32,512 nucleotides of DNA from a virus (IMGVR_UViG_3300012942_000098:1-32512); one strand, 5' to 3'. Counted from the first letter of the stretch, positions 19,585 through 32,160 are shown. The notes: generated from the letters alone by a model not told the origin. Translations and numbers: made by a program.

Positions 19585-19952
19585 GTCGCGCTCCTGATGA
19601 CGACGGTGCAGGGATCGGCGTCACGGACGACCAGAGCCGAGGCGCTGCGCACGTAACGGTTGTTGTCGTCGATGATGATCCCAAGCGTTTTGAGCAGGTC
19701 GATTGGTGCCTTGAGCCGGTTGTCCGGATCGAACGGGACAGCGTGCGGCGAGCAGAGCTCGACCGTGATGTCTACAAGGCCGGCGAATTTCGGTGGGTGC
19801 TGGCTCTTGAGAATCCAGCCGGCTTCCGCGCGCCATGCGGCATATTCCTTCGACGGCACGCGACCGCGCTTAAGTACATTGACGAACAGGCCATTGGTCG
19901 AGGGCGGCCAAGGAAGCGCTATCCGCGTCTCGGTAATGGTGGAGGCGGTCAT
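19581..19952 (-). CDS. rusA: RusA-family Holliday junction resolvase
   Basis: LPWPPSTNGLF...DPDNRLKAPIDLL...IIIDDN catalytic pattern. Confidence 0.85.
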   Translation of the reverse strand: MTASTITETRIALPWPPSTNGLFVNVLKRGRVPSKEYAAWRAEAGWILKSQHPPKFAGLVDITVELCSPHAVPFDPDNRLKAPIDLLKTLGIIIDDNNRYVRSASALVVRDADPCTVVIRSAT

Positions 19953-20959
19953 GCGGCGGCCGTGGGCTGTAGCATCTCGACAGTGCGCGCCTCGAAAAGC
20001 TCCCCAATGTTTCGCTTTGCCTGCCGGAAATAGCTGGGCTTGAGCTCGAAACCGATGCCCTTACGGCCCATTTCGACGGCGCAATAGACCTCGCTGCCGA
20101 TACCCAAAAATGGGGTAAGGACGGTTTCACCGGGAAGGGACCACAGATCGATACACCGCTCGATTACATCGAGTTGAAGCGGCGCAATGTGGACTTCGTC
20201 CTTTTCGTCGCGACCGCCGCGATATTGCAGGGTGCGGGTTTGATCGATGTCGGTCCAAACCGGATCGGCATAGCGCTGCCATATCAGGATCGACACCCAA
20301 GTCTCGTACGGCCATGGAGTATAAGGCCCTGGACCTGTCCACGCTGCCCGGCGCTCGGCAATATCTGCCTCGTAAGCAGCACGGCTCAGATCAAAATCCG
20401 CGCCAATGAAGTGGTCGAACATGCCGGCGATCGGGCGTGCGTTGTAGCCCGGCTTGTGGAATGTGCAAACATAGTCGGCCAGCCCCTGACCGCTTACCGC
20501 GCTGTCCGAAGCGACTTGCTTATGGAGCAGCCGGATCGACTTCGTGCGCTGCTGGGCGACAACCGGGTCTTTCCCAATCATCACTTCCGAATGGAAAATC
20601 CAGCCGGCGTCTTCCCATGCCCTGATGATTTCGCCGCGGAAGTCGCGCATGCCAATGTGACCGTGATTGATTTTCGTCATCGGCAACTGCATGCAATGGA
20701 CGCAATGCAGGCGGCCGGGCTTCGTCACGCGCAGGAGTTCGGAAATCAGAAAAGCGTAGTGCTCCCAGAACTGGTCGCCCTTGTTGTTCGAGATGTCCCG
20801 GTCGAAATTGCTGAACTTGTAAAGCCCCTCGAAGGGCGGCGAGTGAATGCCGAAGTCGATGCTTTCGGACGGGATCGCGCGGATTAGCTCACAAGCGTCA
20901 CCCTGGTAGATCGCATATTCTGGTTTGATGACTTGTTCGACGGCCTTAATGTCGTTCAT
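19949..20959 (-). CDS. DNA amino-methyltransferase (N4-C/N6-A, beta class)
   Basis: Catalytic HSPPF near the N-terminus and SAM-binding VLTPFLGIGS...GIGFELK at the C-terminus. Confidence 0.92.
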   Translation of the reverse strand: MNDIKAVEQVIKPEYAIYQGDACELIRAIPSESIDFGIHSPPFEGLYKFSNFDRDISNNKGDQFWEHYAFLISELLRVTKPGRLHCVHCMQLPMTKINHGHIGMRDFRGEIIRAWEDAGWIFHSEVMIGKDPVVAQQRTKSIRLLHKQVASDSAVSGQGLADYVCTFHKPGYNARPIAGMFDHFIGADFDLSRAAYEADIAERRAAWTGPGPYTPWPYETWVSILIWQRYADPVWTDIDQTRTLQYRGGRDEKDEVHIAPLQLDVIERCIDLWSLPGETVLTPFLGIGSEVYCAVEMGRKGIGFELKPSYFRQAKRNIGELFEARTVEMLQPTAAA

Positions 20960-22356
20960 GCTACCCTCAGAAATTCCGGCAGCTCCATGGGCTGTGTCGG
21001 GTGATAATCGGGGACGACGCGGGCCGTGCCGGCCACTTCGTGGCGGCTCAGGTCGGCCATGTGGAGGATCATCGCCGCGGCCATGCGGTCGGCGTCAGCT
21101 TCCTTGCGTTTGAGATTGGAAAGGACGGCGCCTTCCGTTTCGGCTGCGATGAAATGGACCGTTACGGGCTTCGTCTGCCCGAAGCGCCAGAAGCGCCTAA
21201 TGGCCTGATAGACCTGCTCGAAACTGTCGCTGAGGCCGACAAACCCCGTGTCGGCGCAGTGCTGCCAGTTCATTCCGAAGCCAGCGATCGACGGCTTGGT
21301 AACCAGCACGCGAATTCGGCTTTCGCTGAAATCGATCAGCTTGCGCTCTTTATCAGCCTCGCTGTCAGATCCCCGAACCTCGACCGCGCCTGGAACGGCA
21401 TTGGCGAGTGCTTCGCTTTCGGCGTTGAGGTTGCACCACCATACGAACGGCCGATCGCTGGGCGTGATAGAGGCGGCAAGGGCGGCCCGCTCGGCCACGG
21501 TGTTTCGTCGGGCGCCAAGACGCTCTTGGAGCGTTCGCGCTTCCATCGGGAACAGCAGACCGGTATCCAGCGACGGAGCATAGTCAGCCGCCACAAGGTG
21601 CTGTACCTGCGTCAGTGGCGGAAGGTCATACCCCGCATTGGCGTATCCAAGGTCGGAGGGCTTGCGGATCATGATGGCCCATGATGCCATCCACTTCCAG
21701 AACTCAGTTTCCGCGTGACCTTTGAGACGCCATTTTTGCGTATCGCCGCCGTCGTGCGTGAAGAACGTCGCCAGCATGTCGGAGTAGGACATGACACCCA
21801 AGAACTCCGCGTGATTGCCAAGCTCCATGAAGTCGTTTGGTGCGGGCGTCGCCGTGGCGGCCAACCGGAATGGGATGGCGCTACACGCTTCGATCAGTTC
21901 CGTGCGATAATGGCCCGTGGTGTTTTTGAGGATTGAACTCTCGTCCAGCACGACACCGGCGAAGGCCGAAAGATCGAAGTGCTCGATCTTCTGGTAATTG
22001 GTGATGTTCGTTCCGGGGCCGATGTCGGCGGAAGACTTTACAGCGCGGGCAGCAATGTTGAATTTGCCGGCTTCCCGGCAAAGCTGAGCCGAAACCGCTA
22101 GCGGAGCAAGTTCAAGGATATCGCCGCCGGTCTCGCGGTGGATGGCGTCGGCCCATGCCAGTTCCATCAGGCTCTTGCCGAGGCCGGTTCCGGCAAACAA
22201 GGCCGCGCGCCCGCGCCGAAGCGCCCAAGCTGTAATGTCGCGCTGAAAATCGAACAGGTCCGGATGGAGGTCCGGAACCCTTGATAGACCGGTCGGCGGG
22301 TCAATAATGCGCTTACGGGCAAGGAAATCCGCGTAGCCGGCGAGCGTGGCGTTCAT
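20956..22356 (-). CDS. SF2 (SNF2-like) helicase/ATPase
   Basis: Walker A AGTGLGKS, Walker B VLDESS, TATP, GFGMNWQ and QAIRRFWRFGQ; ATGA-coupled to the methyltransferase. Confidence 0.9.
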   Translation of the reverse strand: MNATLAGYADFLARKRIIDPPTGLSRVPDLHPDLFDFQRDITAWALRRGRAALFAGTGLGKSLMELAWADAIHRETGGDILELAPLAVSAQLCREAGKFNIAARAVKSSADIGPGTNITNYQKIEHFDLSAFAGVVLDESSILKNTTGHYRTELIEACSAIPFRLAATATPAPNDFMELGNHAEFLGVMSYSDMLATFFTHDGGDTQKWRLKGHAETEFWKWMASWAIMIRKPSDLGYANAGYDLPPLTQVQHLVAADYAPSLDTGLLFPMEARTLQERLGARRNTVAERAALAASITPSDRPFVWWCNLNAESEALANAVPGAVEVRGSDSEADKERKLIDFSESRIRVLVTKPSIAGFGMNWQHCADTGFVGLSDSFEQVYQAIRRFWRFGQTKPVTVHFIAAETEGAVLSNLKRKEADADRMAAAMILHMADLSRHEVAGTARVVPDYHPTQPMELPEFLRVA

Positions 22357-22640
22357 TTATCCCCGCCCTCCCCTGCCCATGCTATCGTTCGTCCATGACC
22401 GAATCCGACCTCATCAAGCGCCTGCTGCACTCCCGCTGCGTCATGGAAAAATACCGGCGATACCCCGGCAGATTTCGCGCGGACCTCGGCGATGAACTTG
22501 CCATCTGCGAGACCGAGATCGGCATCCTCCGCGAGTACCAGCGAGATTTCCCGGCCCGGCACGACCATATCGAGGGCATCGTGCGCGGATGGATGGAAGC
22601 GCAGGCGAAAATCAGGGCAATGATGGATTGAGAGGGTCAT
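22353..22640 (-). CDS. Bridging ORF coupled to both neighbours (may not encode a functional protein)
   Basis: ATG overlaps the C5 MTase stop (ATGA) and its stop overlaps the helicase start; composition resembles an antisense shadow. Confidence 0.4.
   Translation of the reverse strand: MTLSIHHCPDFRLRFHPSAHDALDMVVPGREISLVLAEDADLGLADGKFIAEVRAKSAGVSPVFFHDAAGVQQALDEVGFGHGRTIAWAGEGGDK
22395..22631 (+). CDS. Hypothetical protein nested antisense within the early operon
   Basis: 78 aa, helical and charged, with G/C-ending codons; lies wholly inside the - strand ORF 22353-22640. Confidence 0.6.
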   Translation: MTESDLIKRLLHSRCVMEKYRRYPGRFRADLGDELAICETEIGILREYQRDFPARHDHIEGIVRGWMEAQAKIRAMMD

Positions 22641-24502
22641 TCAGCCGCCACCATGAGTTCGCGCCGAACATTGAGCTCCGCCAGTAGCTGGATCGGCAGC
22701 GGCGGGACGGAATTGCCGACGAGGTGATATTTTTCGGTTTTGGTGAGGCGGCGCGTCACGCCGTCGATGACAATCTCGGCCGGGAGCGCCTTCGGTCCGA
22801 AGCCATGCGCCGCCGCGCCCTCCTCTGGCTCCAGCATCCGGATGCCGATATCGTCGAGGATGCGCGTCTCGCGGGCGACCTTGACCTCAACCAGGCCGTG
22901 CCGGGCTTTGGCGGTCACCGCATGCAGCGGATCGGTCGCCGGCTGGTCCATGCCGCCGGTCCCGTAATATTGCTGCAGGAAGGCCAGGATGAGGTGCGCA
23001 TGGCCGCCGCTGGCAGAGACGGCGGCGAGCGGCTCATCCGGATTGCGCGCAACCGAGGCACCCCGCATTTCGCCGAGCGTAGCGGTCACAATGCCCACCT
23101 GTGGTTGAACCGTCAGCGTCGCCAGCGGCTCCCCGGGCTCGCGGCCCGGATGCACGCCGCCGATGCGGCGGCTGTCGTTGTTGTGCTGGGCAAGGAACGC
23201 CGCGACCAGTGCGGCTTTGCTGCCGCCGGCGACCTGCGTTCCGGCCGGCTCCTCGATGTCGAGCGTGCGCGGCGCTTGGCCATCGCGCTCGCCATAGCCG
23301 GTTTGGATGAGGCTGGCCGCAACGAGGATGCGGTCCTCTTTCGTCGTGCCCGAACCCATCGGCTCTTCGAGATCGCGCGGCTCGGTCTGCGCCGCACGGG
23401 CGCCGGCGCCGACAACAGTCGCCGAGACGAGCGCGAGATTGCCCCCGCCCGCGTGGACTGTCGTCACCGGCTCATCGATTCCATATTCGCGGCGGCTCCC
23501 GCTGTCGCCATGCGCGAGACCGGCCAACGAGGGCACGGCCACGACATTCTCGCCGCCCCGCGCCGTAGTGATCGTTGATAGCGGCAGGTCGGCCGAGCGC
23601 GGCCCGTTGCTGCCGCGCGTGTGGGTGATCGGCACAATGAAGGGCTTCGGCGCTTCGACGACGTAACGCATGACGCCGCGCGCGACGCGGCGCAAGGTCG
23701 CCTCCGCCAGTGGCTTCTGCCGGCCGAAGATCGACTTCACCGGCAGCGACCAGTCGATGATCGTGTGCGCGCCGATCCAGGACTTGAGGCCAAGCCGCTT
23801 GGCGTCCTTGCGCGGCGCGTGCGTCCGCTCCGGCCAGACGATTGGGCCGCCATCGGCGCGCATCACGCCGAAAAGCCGCGTCCGTATCGTCGGCACGCCG
23901 AAGTCGGCGCAGCAGATCACGCGCCACTCGAAGCTGTAGCCGAGGTGTTCCCGAATATGCCGCTCGAAGGCGCGCCAGATTTTGCCCTTTTTCTTCGGGT
24001 CGGGCACGAGCCATTGCTGCTCGACCGGGACGCGCTCGCCCTTGGCCGCGACTGTGCCGTCGAGCTTGAGCACGCGGCCGGTCGCCGGGTCGCGCTTGGC
24101 GATGAGCGGCGACCAGGTCGTGATCTCGCGGACGTTTTCGAGGGTGATCGTCTCTGGCCGCACCTGGCCGGCCCAGCGGCAGATCACCCAGGCGAGCGAC
24201 CGGACGCGCTTGCTGACCGGCTTCGATCCCTTGGCGACCGAGAAATGCCGGCAATCGGGCGAGGCGTGGAGCACTCGCACACCTCGGCCTTTGCAAGCCT
24301 GGCGCGGATCGACCTCGAACACATCGGACTGCAGATGCACCGTGTGCGGATGCCGCTTCTGGTGCACCGCGATCGCCACTGGATCGTGGTTGATGGCGAG
24401 GTGTACCGGGAAGCCGGCCTGCTCTAGGCCATCGCAGCCGCCGCCCATGCCGGCGAACAGCACCACCGTCATCCTATTGTCGAGCGACCATGACGCGTTC
24501 AC
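22637..24502 (-). CDS. C5 cytosine DNA methyltransferase
   Basis: Motifs I (LFAGMGG), IV (ASPDC), VI (LENV), VIII (RTRLF) and X (GNSVPP); long repetitive variable region. Confidence 0.95.
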   Translation of the reverse strand: MNASWSLDNRMTVVLFAGMGGGCDGLEQAGFPVHLAINHDPVAIAVHQKRHPHTVHLQSDVFEVDPRQACKGRGVRVLHASPDCRHFSVAKGSKPVSKRVRSLAWVICRWAGQVRPETITLENVREITTWSPLIAKRDPATGRVLKLDGTVAAKGERVPVEQQWLVPDPKKKGKIWRAFERHIREHLGYSFEWRVICCADFGVPTIRTRLFGVMRADGGPIVWPERTHAPRKDAKRLGLKSWIGAHTIIDWSLPVKSIFGRQKPLAEATLRRVARGVMRYVVEAPKPFIVPITHTRGSNGPRSADLPLSTITTARGGENVVAVPSLAGLAHGDSGSRREYGIDEPVTTVHAGGGNLALVSATVVGAGARAAQTEPRDLEEPMGSGTTKEDRILVAASLIQTGYGERDGQAPRTLDIEEPAGTQVAGGSKAALVAAFLAQHNNDSRRIGGVHPGREPGEPLATLTVQPQVGIVTATLGEMRGASVARNPDEPLAAVSASGGHAHLILAFLQQYYGTGGMDQPATDPLHAVTAKARHGLVEVKVARETRILDDIGIRMLEPEEGAAAHGFGPKALPAEIVIDGVTRRLTKTEKYHLVGNSVPPLPIQLLAELNVRRELMVAAE

Positions 24503-26469: not shown

Positions 26470-26770
26470 AGCGGGAGAAACCCGCGCTCAGCCGGAAATA
26501 GACGGCGACCCGTCGCCGAGGGGAGGAAGTCCCGACGACGGATCGCCTATGCGCGCCGAGGGCGTGGGGGACGTAGCGCGCAATGGGAAAGGAAGTGGGC
26601 CGACCGAAGCCGACCCGAGTTGTTATGTCAAAGCAGTAGGAGCAAGCGCCCCTGATGAGCCCAGCCCGACGCCGAAGCGCCGACCTGTCTTGCCACAGCG
26701 GGTGATTTCCGGCGGCAAGTGGCGCGTTGCGAACCCCAGCCGGCCGTCCCCAGCCGGTGCAACGCGCTCC
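26470..26770 (-). ncRNA. Candidate structured RNA with several hairpins, including an anti-SD (cuckoo-like) loop
   Basis: 16-bp stem with G-U pairs and a CUUCCUCCCC loop (26504-26547); two cUUCGg hairpins (about 26597-26616 and 26665-26684); 9-bp stem GCGCGTTGC/GCAACGCGC (26722-26767). Confidence 0.5.
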
Positions 26771-26793: not shown

Positions 26794-26946
26794 TTACGGC
26801 TCCTCCTTTCCGTCCCAATCGGGATCGAAATCGTCATCGTCATCGTCATCGAATGCGCCTTCGAGGACACCGACGAAGAACGCGACGACCATGACAAGGC
26901 CGATGGCGAGCAGGACGAGGCTGGCGTAGAGCGGGAAGTCCTGCAT
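26794..26946 (-). CDS. 50-aa membrane peptide with a poly-Asp tail
   Basis: MQDFPLYASLVLLAIGLVMVVAFFVGVLEGAFDDDDDDDFDPDWDGKEEP; TGATG coupling. Confidence 0.65.
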   Translation of the reverse strand: MQDFPLYASLVLLAIGLVMVVAFFVGVLEGAFDDDDDDDFDPDWDGKEEP

Positions 26947-28007
26947 CACGCAGCCTTCCCTTCGACCTTGAAGCCGAATAGCTGGAGGATTTCCTCTTTC
27001 CGATGTTCGTTTCCTGGAACCTTGGCGAGCTTGTTCGCGATCTGCTTCTGCTCGTGGAGCGTCAGCAGCCGACCGCCGCTTTCGAGGTTCCACCGGATGC
27101 TGTCCGCGAGAGGATCGTCGCCATGATACTGGACGACCGGATATTCGAGGCCGAGGCCACGCGCAGTCGTGTATCGGCACCAGCCGTCGAGGATTTCATC
27201 GTCGATCTTGACGATGGGCTTGCGGACGCCATGCTCGCGAATATCGTCAGCAAAGATCGCGAGCGGCATTCCCCATCGATCCGGCCAGCACGTGTTGAAG
27301 GCGTGCCGCCGAACGGGGCGCGGAGGACATTTTTCGCGTGCGACAATCTCCGTCCCGAAAATGGCGGCCGGGGCAGCGCTTACGCTCTCCCCGGCCTGCG
27401 CCGGCACGGACACCGGCGAATTGGGGGCGGCTACATCTACCGGCAGAGACCGGTCATCGACATGGCCGCCATCGTCCACCCGGCTCTGCCCGGATTGTTC
27501 CACCGGCTGGGCTTCCGATTTGTTTGCCGTTTCCGGCGAAGTGGTTGCCGGCGAAGGATTCGAACCTTCGTTGGCGGATTCAAAGTCCGCAGTCCTACCG
27601 CTAGACGATCCGGCATTGTGGCCGTCTGCGGAGGACTCCACACGGCCGAGAGAACTTCCGGCGTTCTGGATGCCCGGAACGCCCCCCTGCGCTGCCGTTT
27701 CGGACAGCGGTTCGCCATCGAGGATTTCGCCGGTCAGCGGGGGGGCCTCCTCGCGCGCGTCCCGCGCGTCGCGCGTGAGGCTGGCGACGTAGAGGTCAAC
27801 CAGTGCCTCCTGCTCGGCGACTTCGGCGCTGTCCATGTCACGGACGCGCCTGAACGAAACCCGCAGCGCCTTCGTGTCAAAGCCGCCGGTCTTAAGCTCG
27901 GCAAAAAGCTCTCTGAGGTCGTCGGCAACTTCGGCCTTGGCTTCCTCGAGCCGGAGCCAGCGATTGTAGCCGGAGCGGAGAATGTCATCGGCGATGCCGT
28001 CAGCCAC
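26946..28007 (-). CDS. GapR/DUF2312 domain + disordered linker + ParB-N-like domain fusion protein
   Basis: N-terminus LRSGYNRWLRLEEAKAEVADDLRELFAELKTGGFDTKALR...EQEALVDLY matches DUF2312; C-terminus ADDIREHGVRKPIV...ILDGWCRY...WNL is ParB/Srx-like; GGAGG SD before the GTG. Confidence 0.8.
   Translation of the reverse strand: MADGIADDILRSGYNRWLRLEEAKAEVADDLRELFAELKTGGFDTKALRVSFRRVRDMDSAEVAEQEALVDLYVASLTRDARDAREEAPPLTGEILDGEPLSETAAQGGVPGIQNAGSSLGRVESSADGHNAGSSSGRTADFESANEGSNPSPATTSPETANKSEAQPVEQSGQSRVDDGGHVDDRSLPVDVAAPNSPVSVPAQAGESVSAAPAAIFGTEIVAREKCPPRPVRRHAFNTCWPDRWGMPLAIFADDIREHGVRKPIVKIDDEILDGWCRYTTARGLGLEYPVVQYHGDDPLADSIRWNLESGGRLLTLHEQKQIANKLAKVPGNEHRKEEILQLFGFKVEGKAA
27542..27615 (-). 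tRNA. tRNA-Gln(TTG) embedded in a coding sequence on the same strand
   Basis: TGCCGGA TC GTCT-AGCGGTA-GGAC T GCGGA-CTTTGAA-TCCGC CAAC GAAGG-TTCGAAT-CCTTC GCCGGCA A CCA (74 nt); all arms pair, with only a 7:66 mismatch; encoded CCA; U1-A72. Confidence 0.88.
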
Positions 28008-28340
28008 CTACGCCTCCACCGGCTGGCCGTGGAGGATCGGCGCGAAAAGAGCGATGTCGTCTTCGGCCGATATGTCGCGATCCACCACGGGGTCGAAGCG
28101 CCAGACCGCGAAGCATGGCTCCCAGAAAATGTCTGGTGGTCCCTCGATCCACATGTGACGATTATGAATTTCCACCAGCGTCATCGCCGGTTCGTCGCCC
28201 ACCATCCGAATCTCGCGGACGGTGTACGTGTTCCCCTTTTCCGGCGCCGATACATCGGCTGGCATCATGTCGTGCTTCCATTCCGGATTCGGTCGGACAC
28301 ACACACACCGGACGCCGGGTCTTGCCCATGAATTGTCCAT
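28008..28340 (-). CDS. Hypothetical protein, cassette copy 1 (MDNSWARPGVRCVCV...)
   Basis: 110 aa, GGGGAGG SD, TAATG coupling; paralog of 28580-28867. Confidence 0.75.
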   Translation of the reverse strand: MDNSWARPGVRCVCVRPNPEWKHDMMPADVSAPEKGNTYTVREIRMVGDEPAMTLVEIHNRHMWIEGPPDIFWEPCFAVWRFDPVVDRDISAEDDIALFAPILHGQPVEA

Positions 28341-28579: not shown

Positions 28580-28867
28580 CTACGCCTCCACCGGCTGGCC
28601 GTGGAGGATCGGCGCGAAAAGGGCGATGTCGTCTTCGATGGGCGTTTCGCGGTCCACTACGGGGCGGAAACCGTCCGCCTGCCAGTAATGGTCAAGCACG
28701 TCGCCCCAGAGGCCGATGCAAATGAGCCCTTGATGCTCGATTACCGAGACGATCTTAAAAACAGGACCACCCTCCGGAGGAGCGCTCCGGGCGCCGGTAT
28801 GGACGTCGTGCCAATACTCCTCGACACATACGCACCGGACGCCGGGCTTTGCCCATGAATTGTCCAT
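28580..28867 (-). CDS. Hypothetical protein, cassette copy 2 (MDNSWAKPGVRCVCV...)
   Basis: 95 aa from ATG 28867; nearly the same N- and C-termini as copy 1 with a different core. Confidence 0.75.
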   Translation of the reverse strand: MDNSWAKPGVRCVCVEEYWHDVHTGARSAPPEGGPVFKIVSVIEHQGLICIGLWGDVLDHYWQADGFRPVVDRETPIEDDIALFAPILHGQPVEA

Positions 28868-29010
28868 TACCCCCTCCCCATCATGGTCAGCAGCATGTCC
28901 GAAGCGCAGGAGAGCCCAAAAAGCGCGGCGCCGACGAAGACCAGCGCGGCAGCAAATTGGGCAGCGAAGACGAGGCGCGGGAAGGTGCGGTTGAGAGCGC
29001 GCGGTGTCAT
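28867..29010 (-). CDS. 47-aa membrane peptide, cassette copy 2
   Basis: MTPRALNRTFPRLVFAAQFAAALVFVGAALFGLSCASDMLLTMMGRG; TAATG-coupled downstream. Confidence 0.6.
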   Translation of the reverse strand: MTPRALNRTFPRLVFAAQFAAALVFVGAALFGLSCASDMLLTMMGRG

Positions 29011-29282
29011 GCAGCAGCTCCCGCGAAAGGATCGGAGGTAAAATGGCCGACACCATCCGAATGACTGAGCCGGTCGCGGTAAGCTGCGTCCTTTGCGAAG
29101 GCATCAGCATCGAGGTTCGCGACGAGATCATCCGAGTTGTCGGTTGGATTGATCTTGAGACCGTCGCCGGCAATGAGCAGGAGCGCCGCATCGTGATGCG
29201 CGCCGCCTTTCCCAGCATGATCGCCAGGGCGCTGATGCGCGATTTGCGGCGAGCGGTGATGAGGCACCAGCATTGATGTCAT
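29007..29282 (-). CDS. Bridging ORF coupled to cro and to the membrane-peptide gene
   Basis: ATGA overlaps at both ends; 91 aa with antisense-like composition. Confidence 0.35.
   Translation of the reverse strand: MTSMLVPHHRSPQIAHQRPGDHAGKGGAHHDAALLLIAGDGLKINPTDNSDDLVANLDADAFAKDAAYRDRLSHSDGVGHFTSDPFAGAAA
29043..29276 (+). CDS. Hypothetical protein nested antisense within the early operon
   Basis: 77 aa (MADTIRMTEPVAVSCVLCEG...) with a strong GGAGGT SD before the ATG. Confidence 0.7.
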   Translation: MADTIRMTEPVAVSCVLCEGISIEVRDEIIRVVGWIDLETVAGNEQERRIVMRAAFPSMIARALMRDLRRAVMRHQH

Positions 29283-29500
29283 GCCGCACTCCTCCGAAGC
29301 TTGCGCTCGGTCGCGATGAACTCGCGAATGCGGTCTTCGGTATCCGGCCATACTCTCGCGGGGCGTCCCCGCGCCGTGGTTTGCGCGCGCAGCCTCTCGA
29401 CAAGGCGCCCATTGCGCACCGCAAGGAAGCCAAAGCGGTATTCGCTCATGCCAGTCTCGCGGAGGAAGGCGTCGATTTCGGAAAGCAAGGATGCGTTCAT
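29279..29500 (-). CDS. Cro-like HTH regulator
   Basis: MNASLLSEIDAFLRETGMSEYRFGFLAVRNGRLVERLR...TEDRIREFI; divergent from the CI-like repressor. Confidence 0.85.
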   Translation of the reverse strand: MNASLLSEIDAFLRETGMSEYRFGFLAVRNGRLVERLRAQTTARGRPARVWPDTEDRIREFIATERKLRRSAA

Positions 29501-29506
29501 GCACCC

Positions 29507-29580
29507 ATTATGCACGCTTATGCGTGTACGTCAACACGCTAAATCGTTCACCACGCAAAAGCGTGCGGCTGCTATAAAAT
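29507..29580. promoter_or_regulatory. cI/cro divergent promoters with three operators (CACGC-N4-GCGTG)
   Basis: CACGCttatGCGTG (29513-29526), CACGCtaaaTCGTT (29535-29548) and CACGCaaaaGCGTG (29552-29565); - strand TTGACG-N16-CATAAT ahead of cro; + strand GCTATAAAAT just before the cI ATG. Confidence 0.75.
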
Positions 29581-29584
29581 TCCC

Positions 29585-30259
29585 ATGCAGGATGAATGGT
29601 TTGAACGTCTAAAGGCCGCGATTGCGAATGACGGACGCTCGTTGCGGGACATAAGCCTCGCGGCGGGCCTTGGGCCGAACTATGTCCAGCAGATGATTAA
29701 GAGAGATCAGCCCCCCAAGATCGCGACCAGGGATAAGTTGCTTGAAATTCTAGAGCCATCTGTGGCCGCTCAGCTTCGCGTAGAGCCGCCGCTCCGCGCC
29801 GCCCCAATTCTCGGTCTCGCGGGCGCAGGCCCAGAGGGGACGGTTTTGTTTGCCGAAGCGCAGGGAAGCTTCGGCGAGGTGCCGGCGCCGCCCGGTTCTG
29901 GCGAACAGGTGGCCGCGCTCGAGGTCAGGGGGAACTCAATGCACGGGCTAGCGGAGGACGGCTGGCTTCTATTTTACGAGGAACGTACCGAGCCGCGCGA
30001 CGAATATATGGGAGAACCCTGTGTCTGCTGGCTTGAGAATGGGCACGTCCTCGTCAAAATACCGGAGCCCACCAGATTTCCTGGTCTCTATAATCTGACC
30101 AGTACGAACGCGCCAACCATGCGAGAGGTCCCCGTCAGCGAAATGGCCTTGGTCATGGACATTCGGCCCAGGCGTGCAGCGCAGCGCTTCATTCGGCGCA
30201 ATCCCGAACAAAAGGTCATCGATGTCCAAAACGGCCAACGTCCAGAGGCGCGGAAGTGA
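29585..30259 (+). CDS. CI-like repressor (HTH + S24 peptidase)
   Basis: HTH SLRDISLAAGLGPNYVQQM; AG cleavage region GLAGAG; catalytic VRGNSM and VLVK. Confidence 0.9.
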   Translation: MQDEWFERLKAAIANDGRSLRDISLAAGLGPNYVQQMIKRDQPPKIATRDKLLEILEPSVAAQLRVEPPLRAAPILGLAGAGPEGTVLFAEAQGSFGEVPAPPGSGEQVAALEVRGNSMHGLAEDGWLLFYEERTEPRDEYMGEPCVCWLENGHVLVKIPEPTRFPGLYNLTSTNAPTMREVPVSEMALVMDIRPRRAAQRFIRRNPEQKVIDVQNGQRPEARK

Positions 30260-31320: not shown

Positions 31321-32160
31321 ATGACGATTTGCGTTGGGGTGAAGGTCAACGATTGTATCGTTTTTGTCGCCGACAGTGCATCCTCGATGGTGGCTCAGGG
31401 GCCGAGCGGTCCTGTCATATCCCGCGTGTATAACCACGGCGACAAGCTGTTCAATTTGTACCGCGGCCTTCCTGTGGCGGCCATGACATGCGGACTGGGT
31501 GCGTTTGGGCGGGAGTCGATTGCCACGATCGCGAAGGGCATACGCGTCGATCTTATGGCGGAAGACAGCGAGATTACCCCAGAGAACTACGCCATAGAAG
31601 CGATCGCCAACTTCGCTTGCGATCGTTTTAGGGCCAAGTTCGAGGTACTGGACCCGGCTGTCAGGGAAGGATCATCGTTCGAGTTTTTCGTCGGTGGTTA
31701 CTCGGCAAAAGCGACAGACAGCGAAGTGTGGAAATTCCAATTTGGTCCTGGCCAAACAGGCAGTCCAACTTGCATCGCCGGCCACGATCATCCAGATATC
31801 GTTTGGGCTGGGCAGCCGGAAGCTATCGTGCGCCTGGTGTTTGGGATTCCGTCGTCCCTGACGGAAATCCTGAAGGAGACAGGTCTGGCGGACGCGCAGG
31901 TAGCAAATCTCGTCTCGCTAATTCAGCAGCGAGCGCAGGCGCAGTTCCTGGAAGCTGCAATGCCGGTACGCGACGCCATAGAATTGGCACGTTTCTTGGC
32001 ACAAACGGCGGCCTCATACGTTCGTTTCTTGCCAGGAGCGGATACCATCGGCGGTGACCTCGACGTCGCAACGGTAACGAAATTTGAAGGATTCCGCTGG
32101 ATCAGTAGAAAGCACTTCTACTCTCCAGCGCTAAACCCGGAGACCGACCATGTCCGATAA
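31321..32160 (+). CDS. Proteasome beta-subunit-like Ntn hydrolase
   Basis: M-T-ICVGV (Thr1 after Met removal), IVFVADS, downstream KLF, FFVGGY, DAIELARFL and C-terminal TIGGDLDVATV follow the proteasome/HslV/Anbu fold pattern. Confidence 0.78.
   Translation: MTICVGVKVNDCIVFVADSASSMVAQGPSGPVISRVYNHGDKLFNLYRGLPVAAMTCGLGAFGRESIATIAKGIRVDLMAEDSEITPENYAIEAIANFACDRFRAKFEVLDPAVREGSSFEFFVGGYSAKATDSEVWKFQFGPGQTGSPTCIAGHDHPDIVWAGQPEAIVRLVFGIPSSLTEILKETGLADAQVANLVSLIQQRAQAQFLEAAMPVRDAIELARFLAQTAASYVRFLPGADTIGGDLDVATVTKFEGFRWISRKHFYSPALNPETDHVR

Follow-up and report, generated by a model that had tools for sequence, protein, structure and literature searches.

A tRNA-Gln(UUG) gene of 74 nt lies on the coding strand, and in frame, within the linker of a 353-residue protein that joins a GapR-like domain to a ParB-like domain. 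Sequence comparison suggests that this DNA is probably dual-coded: it would specify a protein linker and also a tRNA that is cut from the early transcript, with tRNA supply as the selected function and cleavage of the mRNA as a tolerated cost. Supply of the tRNA is favoured as the selected function because the anticodon type and the CCA end are kept in the family, whereas the presence and the position of the tRNA are not. A dual-coded locus had been put forward in the original prediction for this DNA, and it is supported by the conserved fusion, by the coding signature and by the recurrence of the nested tRNA with stem-preserving changes. The window analysed here is the whole 32,512-nt virus record IMGVR_UViG_3300012942_000098:1-32512 (61% GC), the source of which is an alphaproteobacterial temperate phage.

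The nested tRNA-Gln gene

The only tRNA that ARAGORN identified in the window is a tRNA-Gln(ttg) on the minus strand (27542-27615), and the same segment matches the Rfam tRNA family RF00005 with 56.5 bits (E value of 8e-10), above the Rfam cut-off. Both results bear out the full 74-nt tRNA-Gln(UUG) with an encoded CCA that had been predicted at this position. The gene, which occupies residues 132-155 of the reading frame, has the UUG anticodon, U33, G18-G19 and a T loop, and its D, anticodon and T stems are standard. The expected U1-A72 first pair is present, as is the CCA; this pair is described as the GatCAB element of bacterial tRNA-Gln in the accessible part of PMC2811023. The cloverleaf is less intact than had been thought in one respect: the 7-bp acceptor stem is not fully paired, as pair 7-66 is an A·G mismatch that had been overlooked. 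The closest free-standing relative (L041; 69 of 74 positions identical) has A-U at this pair, and the nested copy in L159 has a fully paired acceptor stem. In the minimum-energy fold of the window tRNA G66 moves into the T stem. Together, the mismatch and this shift suggest that the window copy may be beginning to decay, A7·G66 being a possible early step.

Contigs from sequencing run X1, which is possibly the source sample and so not independent, cover the ORF at 26946-28007 in overlapping pieces with no differences from the window. Low-depth contigs from three other studies (X2-X4) contain all or part of the tRNA, with position 66 among the parts covered, again with no differences, so neither the open frame nor A7·G66 is a sequencing error. 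Runs X6 and X8 yielded no contig here and X5 just a short one. Sequencing error, which the original prediction had named as a possible undoing, and a one-off read-through are both ruled out by these contigs together with the conserved architecture described below. One X1 contig joins 27530 to 27619 (with a side of 30 letters, the letters between not being determined), which is a weak hint of a tRNA-less relative.

The nearest relatives of the tRNA point to other phages as its origin. In both L041 and L306 the free-standing tRNA-Gln is part of a Pro-Gln-Arg cluster, and a pattern search found this tRNA type in one of 401 genomes, as a free-standing cluster, so the type is rare in those genomes. 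Host Gln(UUG) has a different D arm in all five alphaproteobacterial genomes compared and G37 in four of the five, which makes the window tRNA unlikely to be a host copy or an att remnant. An attP or attL tRNA remnant was considered separately and is ruled against by the full length of the tRNA, by the lack of an integrase among the window ORFs scanned and by the differing host D arm. The demand for the tRNA in the window itself is modest, since CAA makes up 55 of the 254 Gln codons in 24 window ORFs.

The GapR-like reading frame

The minus-strand ORF at 26946-28007 is stop-free over 353 residues, with a GTG start that has GGAGG upstream and a TGA stop that overlaps the next ATG. Translation confirmed that the tRNA is read through without a stop in the linker of this ORF, the tRNA-containing peptide being located at residues 131-156. 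GapR/DUF2312 is a nucleoid-associated protein that binds overtwisted or AT-rich DNA, and the GapR/DUF2312 DNA-binding domain of the ORF (residues 7-77; 27777-27989, minus strand) matches PF10073 with an E value of 1.6e-15 and PDB entry 6cfx with an E value of 1.6e-13. It is followed by a linker (residues 88-212; 27372-27746, minus strand) that is predicted to be disordered and is hypervariable and made up of exchangeable modules, as judged by pLDDT, alignments and module sharing. The folded C-terminal domain (residues 222-343; 26979-27344, minus strand) has a possible ParB/sulfiredoxin-like fold according to PHROG, AlphaFold2 and Foldseek, and shows an excess of synonymous changes. The AlphaFold2 model, calculated with a 19-row alignment, has confident helices at residues 5-87, pLDDT values below 50 at residues 88-109, 111-168 and 170-212, and a folded region at residues 222-343.

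Of the predicted GapR-ParB-like fusion, the GapR assignment and the fusion itself hold (PF10073, 6cfx), whereas the `ParB-like' identity of the C-terminal domain is weakly supported. The match to PHROG has an E value of 0.003 and the top Foldseek matches are Noc, PadC, Spo0J, ParB and KorB, with a best E value of only 1.1e-3; no Pfam ParB match was found in any of the 19 members of alignment A8. The arginine-patch CTP motif of the ParB N-terminal CTPase is GxxRxxA; in A8, residues D274, G275 and R278 are invariant and the arginine patch is reduced. In most other relatives the tail ends in a four-cysteine motif and not in a ParB-like domain.

The domain downstream of the tRNA shows a coding signature. 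In the C-terminal part, a relative in run X1 has 50 differences, of which 40 were listed; 25 of these 40 are at third positions, and of the 32 codons affected 20 have synonymous changes. Between L212 and L162, 29 of 50 differences are likewise at third positions. Every one of the 19 rows of A8 has a PF10073 match as well as the invariant residues of the C-terminal domain, which rules out a local stop loss as the source of the fusion, and the separate genes or one-off loss of a stop that the original prediction had allowed for are not what the relatives show: 18 other proteins have the same architecture.

The database gene call for this contig (P0281, a 185-residue protein) starts after the tRNA, at an internal GTG (V169; 27501-27503, minus strand), and drops the GapR half, probably through overlap resolution. 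Such a gene call would be expected if gapR and the ParB-like part were separate genes around an intergenic tRNA with the frame open by chance, and stops are scarce in GC-rich DNA. We regard this annotation artefact as extremely unlikely, given that 15 of the 18 other single-chain GapR plus ParB-like proteins have no tRNA peptide at all, that linker indels of 72 and 99 nt are in frame and that free-standing tRNA-Gln loci mostly have short open frames. In the nesting frame, 57 of 77 Gln(UUG) genes (a set chosen by pattern) are stop-free compared with 119 of 270 non-Gln tRNAs, and a disordered linker would readily accommodate the small, polar peptide that results.

Recurrence of the nested tRNA and covariation of its stems

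A profile search built without the window linker retrieved GapR-tail proteins, which were then compared with 482 translated tRNAs (a Gln-rich library with 107 Gln members). Four of these proteins, found without a tRNA query, contain the full 24-residue tRNA-Gln peptide with scores of 35-40.5 bits; the best of 489 shuffles scored 32.0 bits and the next 26.5 bits. At the DNA level, the prophage gapR gene L159 contains, in the frame used in the window, an intact tRNA-Gln(UUG) with CCA that scores 57.1 bits and has standard pairs throughout, and the prophage L212 has an identical tRNA and the same GapR-tRNA-ParB-like order as the window. The window and L159 tRNAs differ by three two-sided stem changes. 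These are the only two distinct gapR-nested tRNA sequences seen as DNA, the other cases being peptide-based, and with the peptides they indicate that in-frame tRNA-Gln recurs in gapR genes with compensatory stem changes, as the original prediction had suggested looking for. T-loop peptides in the nesting frame are likewise enriched in the tails (14 compared with 2.9 after shuffling), with no excess in the other two T-loop reading frames (3 compared with 2.1 and 0 compared with 0.7).

A profile of seven tRNA peptides retrieved 687 proteins, and PF10073 is present in 18 of the best 120. Together with the window and P0184 (which has no Pfam GapR match), these 18 proteins form a set of 20 carriers with 18 distinct peptides. 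Stem pairing is readable from the residues because the stem strands occupy the first two codon positions. Across the distinct peptides, Watson-Crick pairing is possible at 77 of the 90 pair positions, and at 89 of the 90 when G·U is included; one position is invariant. Shuffled controls, which ignore relatedness, averaged 57.2 and reached at most 66 in 10,000 trials. The encoded CCA is compatible in 20 of 20 carriers. All 20 of this selected set also have F at the anticodon codon, which fits UUG or UCG, so that the anticodon is not fixed by the peptide. The start of the module ranges from residue 86 to residue 225 among the carriers, the first 80 residues of which have a median identity of 34%.

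Where tRNAs are related or have been captured more than once, covariation can be older than the nesting. In six tRNAs compared at the DNA level (four nested, two free) two-sided changes occur in 12 of 21 pairs; this comparison mixes nested and free copies and would mainly indicate that the sequences are tRNAs. Two stem swaps appear to be better evidence for selection after nesting. P0172 and P0175 have common flanks, yet on the two strands of the anticodon stem P/G in one corresponds to A/A in the other, a sign of compensation after nesting. Among HerA-like proteins that have the module at residue 360-361, a swap of S/E for A/A affects the acceptor stem.

The tRNA-Gln module was also observed outside GapR-tail genes. 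A 561-residue HerA/DUF87-like phage ATPase (L145 1501-3183; also L046, L070 and L075) has an intact in-frame tRNA-Gln(UUG) with CCA in its linker (53.2 bits), and a 57%-identical HerA-like relative has a different, decayed tRNA-Gln in the same place (L148 2580-2653; 27 bits, below the cut-off). The HerA-like proteins with the peptide at residue 360-361 are P0173, P0228 and P0243. In-frame tRNA-Gln peptides are further present in linkers or tails of P0196, P0206 (SSB) and P0210 (RecT), and the same peptide is found in P0169, P0177, P0186, P0187, P0190, P0200, P0209, P0249, P0259 and P0270, a probable two-part family (five of the ten were scanned, with no Pfam match). Many short GIY-YIG (PF01541) proteins have a C-terminal end that is the tRNA-Gln peptide.

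Optional presence in the GapR family

The full tRNA peptide is present in four of 128 long-tailed proteins, a set not chosen for the tRNA. A nested tRNA was found in one of 17 long-tailed loci in one locus set and in none of the 24 long-tailed loci among the 80 loci of another. On a tree of GapR N-termini from 65 sequences (20 carriers and 45 others; 87 columns, poorly resolved) the carrier label needs five changes, at least four of them by well-supported branches; this count is a rough minimum, since the sampling of non-carriers covered part of the family.

A full-protein locus search of viral contigs returned no match, and the first three locus scans found GapR-tail loci and no credible nested tRNA, low-score ARAGORN calls within tails (marked with an asterisk) being treated as noise. 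The GapR-type tail genes of phiLM21 (p022), RHph_N28_2, RHph_TM3_3_3 and the Devosia SL43 element contain no ARAGORN tRNA. A blastn search of the linker against GenBank phages gave matches in the tRNA region only, none of which is annotated under a CDS (21 records), and an order-wide genome search with alignment A5 found mostly short chromosomal gapR.

Linker modules

Tail length across the GapR relatives varies from about 10 to more than 300 residues. The 5' hairpin and the 3' flank of the window are both found in locus L019, which lacks the tRNA and is shorter by 72 nt (24 codons), and L020 has a different insert of 99 nt in the slot occupied by the window tRNA; both indels keep the reading frame. 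L159 and L212 are 99% identical over a linker block of 373 nt but have different N- and C-terminal domains, which suggests that linker modules move by recombination. Of the two hairpins predicted just 5' of the tRNA, both of which were found, the first (27620-27647, minus strand; z -3.29) is shared with the tRNA-less L019 and L020 and the second (27660-27683, minus strand; z -2.70) is not conserved in them, the z-scores (200 shuffles) being inflated because the segments were picked by eye.

The same tails also occur on helical N-termini that do not score as PF10073 (L019 1617-2366, L021 2983-4041, P0170, P0171, P0175, P0176, P0181, P0188 and P0224), so both ends of the gene are exchangeable. 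Several further modules were noted in or near GapR tails. P0003, P0010 and P0013 have an in-frame T5orf172/MUG113 nuclease-like domain within the tail. Tail peptides of P0004, P0026, P0081, P0084, P0094 and P0141 resemble the 3' half of tRNA-Met(CAU), and a free-standing tRNA-Met(CAU) (L305 582-658) is present in G775, a related prophage with a GapR-tail gene. Hairpins of the ar14/cuckoo-like type with CCUCCUCCC occur in frame in one GapR tail or slightly downstream of gapR-type genes (L002 3891-3991, also L003, L007 and L008; L021 4388-4487; L023 4082-4180), all below the Rfam cut-off with E values of 0.002-0.06.

One tentative view, which we hold as possible and short of probable, is that alphaproteobacterial temperate phages may use the disordered linker of the early GapR-tail gene as a recombining in-frame cassette for structured RNA genes (tRNA-Gln(UUG), tRNA-Met(CAU)-like segments and CCUCCUCCC `cuckoo'-type hairpins) and that the same stop-free tRNA-Gln frame may have independently colonised the linkers of SSB, RecT, HerA-like and unnamed phage proteins.

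The same exchange of modules bears on a neutral reading, in which tRNAs are repeatedly captured in a permissive linker, are read as spacer only and decay, the window copy being recent. It gains from the patchy distribution (at least four to five changes on the GapR-domain tree), from A7·G66 in the window tRNA and the decayed L148 copy, from the partial Met(CAU)-like modules in the six proteins named above and from the movement of the 373-nt block by recombination; moreover, as most carriers were retrieved through their resemblance to intact peptides, decayed copies would tend to be missed. We nevertheless find it doubtful that the tRNA is a mere passenger, because 89 of 90 pairs can pair and the CCA is compatible in all 20 carriers despite the low identity of the first 80 residues, and because the P0172/P0175 compensation lies inside one insertion lineage.

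Genomic setting and proposed mechanism

On the minus strand of the window a cro-like gene is followed by early and replication genes and then by terminase and portal genes, with a divergent cI-like repressor. The repressor (29585-30259, plus strand) has HTH and S24 domain matches. The cro-like gene and a sigma70-like promoter match, TTGACG-16-CATAAT, are located at 29279-29534 (minus strand); the cro assignment follows from position, and the promoter match is weak (one site compared with 0.8 expected by chance). This promoter is the probable start of an early transcript through the gapR ORF, and a terminator-like site is present between the two. The ORF whose ATG overlaps the gapR stop encodes a hydrophobic/acidic protein of 50 residues by its sequence (26794-26946, minus strand), and possible translational coupling is indicated by the overlap.

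Other features of the window were recorded in passing. At 26470-26570 (minus strand), 3' of the gapR ORF, a long hairpin with a CUUCCUCCCC loop (z -3.35) resembles the cuckoo-type anti-Shine-Dalgarno sRNA module, and terminator-like sites are found at 26503-26518 and 26597-26616. The ORFs at 28008-28340 and 28580-29218 (minus strand) have a common duplicated module that starts with MDNSWA.PGVRCVCV and ends with DDIALFAPILHGQPVEA. In the early region at 19949-24502 (minus strand), C5 and N6/N4 DNA methyltransferases flank an SNF2-like helicase. In L023, a DUF3800 gene adjacent to the repressor is accompanied by a DUF3800-VII RNA motif (511-599; 50.1 bits), and an unassigned 279-residue window ORF (31321-32160) has a similar accessory position.

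In each of the four nested lineages for which DNA was seen (the window, L159/L212, L145 and L148) the CCA is followed by a (C/G)UUC trailer, and we take it to resemble an RNase E site by consensus. With the internal GTG at V169 and the place of the gene in the cro operon, its stop overlapping the next start, the trailer would suit the processing switch for the early operon that had been proposed for this locus. The cloverleaf would then be a target for RNase P and RNase E through which the early mRNA is cut, full-length GapR-ParB is lowered and a ParB-like fragment starting at GTG169 may be freed. The same model has been proposed for selB-selC in the accessible text of PMC8124441. We consider a conserved switch improbable here. 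A cleavage target needs no fixed anticodon type, yet F is present in all 20 carriers of the selected set; the tRNA is missing from most relatives (present in 4/128, 1/17 and 0/24) and its position in the linker varies over residues 86-225; and no stand-alone ParB-like relative of 70-224 residues was found, a weak negative with only four candidates.

Dependence of lysogeny on the tRNA would require that the phage integrates into a host tRNA-Gln gene without rebuilding it and that the nested tRNA complements the loss. The mechanism is known (PMC10865867, in the part available), the phage is temperate with cI and cro, and relatives with the nested tRNA have tyrosine integrases. It is very unlikely to apply here, since no tRNA-Gln att core was found at the ends of G772 or G004 (trimmed records; the integration region is absent from the window), the tRNA is in the cro operon, which cI would be expected to repress in a lysogen, and phiLM21-like prophages, which carry related genes, rebuild the target tRNA (PMC12429752).

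The dual-coded reading can be set out as a sequence of putative events. Free-standing tRNA clusters of phages would have supplied the tRNA-Gln as a small module, which would have been inserted into a linker that swaps modules by recombination. It may have survived there because a Gln cloverleaf in this frame is stop-free and reads as a Gly/Ser/Pro/Asn-rich spacer. Some of the early, cro-operon transcripts would be translated whole and others would be cut by RNase P and 3' nucleases to give tRNA-Gln, with the loss of full-length protein and polarity on downstream genes as a tolerated cost rather than a conserved switch. Supply of tRNA-Gln by the nested gene is plausible, and its most likely role would be to supplement the Gln(UUG) pool in early infection, for instance to offset a putative depletion of tRNAs by the host.

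Comparison with known systems

New in this case is a phage gene family in which about 19 diverse proteins share one isoacceptor in one frame, its base pairing being legible in the amino acids. Natural pairs with and without the tRNA (the window and L019; L212 and L162), together with prophages in isolate genomes, make the question of tRNA maturation within an mRNA testable. The case also reveals an annotation blind spot, as the database gene call begins only beyond the tRNA and omits the GapR half; phage tRNA counts and gene models may both be affected. If the tentative cassette reading is true, functional tRNAs hidden in coding sequences would be a general strategy for packaging and early expression, and the splitting of genes by annotation pipelines would mask nested tRNAs.

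The N-terminal helical domain of about 75 residues is like that of GapR/DUF2312 (PF10073; PDB entries 6cfx, 6cg8 and 6ozx), with the difference that the phage version, for which DNA binding is predicted, adds a tail of 100-300 residues that varies and terminates in either a ParB-like domain or a four-cysteine motif. The tRNA resembles free-standing phage tRNAs in being phage-borne and distinct from the host isoacceptor, and temperate rhizobial phages have one or two tRNAs in the accessible parts of PMC10264068 and PMC12429752; its nearest relative (L041) lies in an ordinary Pro-Gln-Arg cluster. Free-standing phage tRNA genes have been proposed to counter tRNA-depleting defences (PMC10264068, available sections), and phiLM21-like prophages are described as having tRNA-Met/fMet genes, with no tRNA-Gln and no tRNA-dependent lysogeny (PMC12429752, available sections). 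In contrast to the nested gene, the tRNAs in those two papers are separate genes, and their accessible text mentions neither tRNA-Gln nor nesting in coding sequence. Phages with tRNA-dependent lysogeny, as described in the available part of PMC10865867, are similar in being temperate and having their own tRNA, with tyrosine integrases in the relatives here; they differ in that the present tRNA is in an early lytic operon and gives no sign of integration into a tRNA-Gln gene.

No description of a tRNA nested in gapR or in other phage ORFs was found in the open-access literature, nor anything relevant on cuckoo RNAs, and for nested tRNA genes in bacterial ORFs the literature searched holds, in the text accessible, one bioinformatic precedent, selC in selB. 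In that work, selC (tRNA-Sec) was predicted inside the selB ORF of Alphaproteobacteria, was presented as the first case of a tRNA gene nested within a bacterial ORF, and its processing was proposed to compete with translation on bioinformatic grounds only (Mukai 2021; PMC8124441, accessible text). The two cases are alike in that a whole tRNA lies on the coding strand and in frame, the ORF stop overlaps the next start, remnants are present in some lineages and the case is bioinformatic only. As far as the accessible text of that paper goes, selC is read as an extension at the C terminus of its own elongation factor; the tRNA-Gln described here belongs to a phage, has no known link to the protein that contains it and is placed mid-linker, 5' of a folded domain, as an optional module at varying positions.
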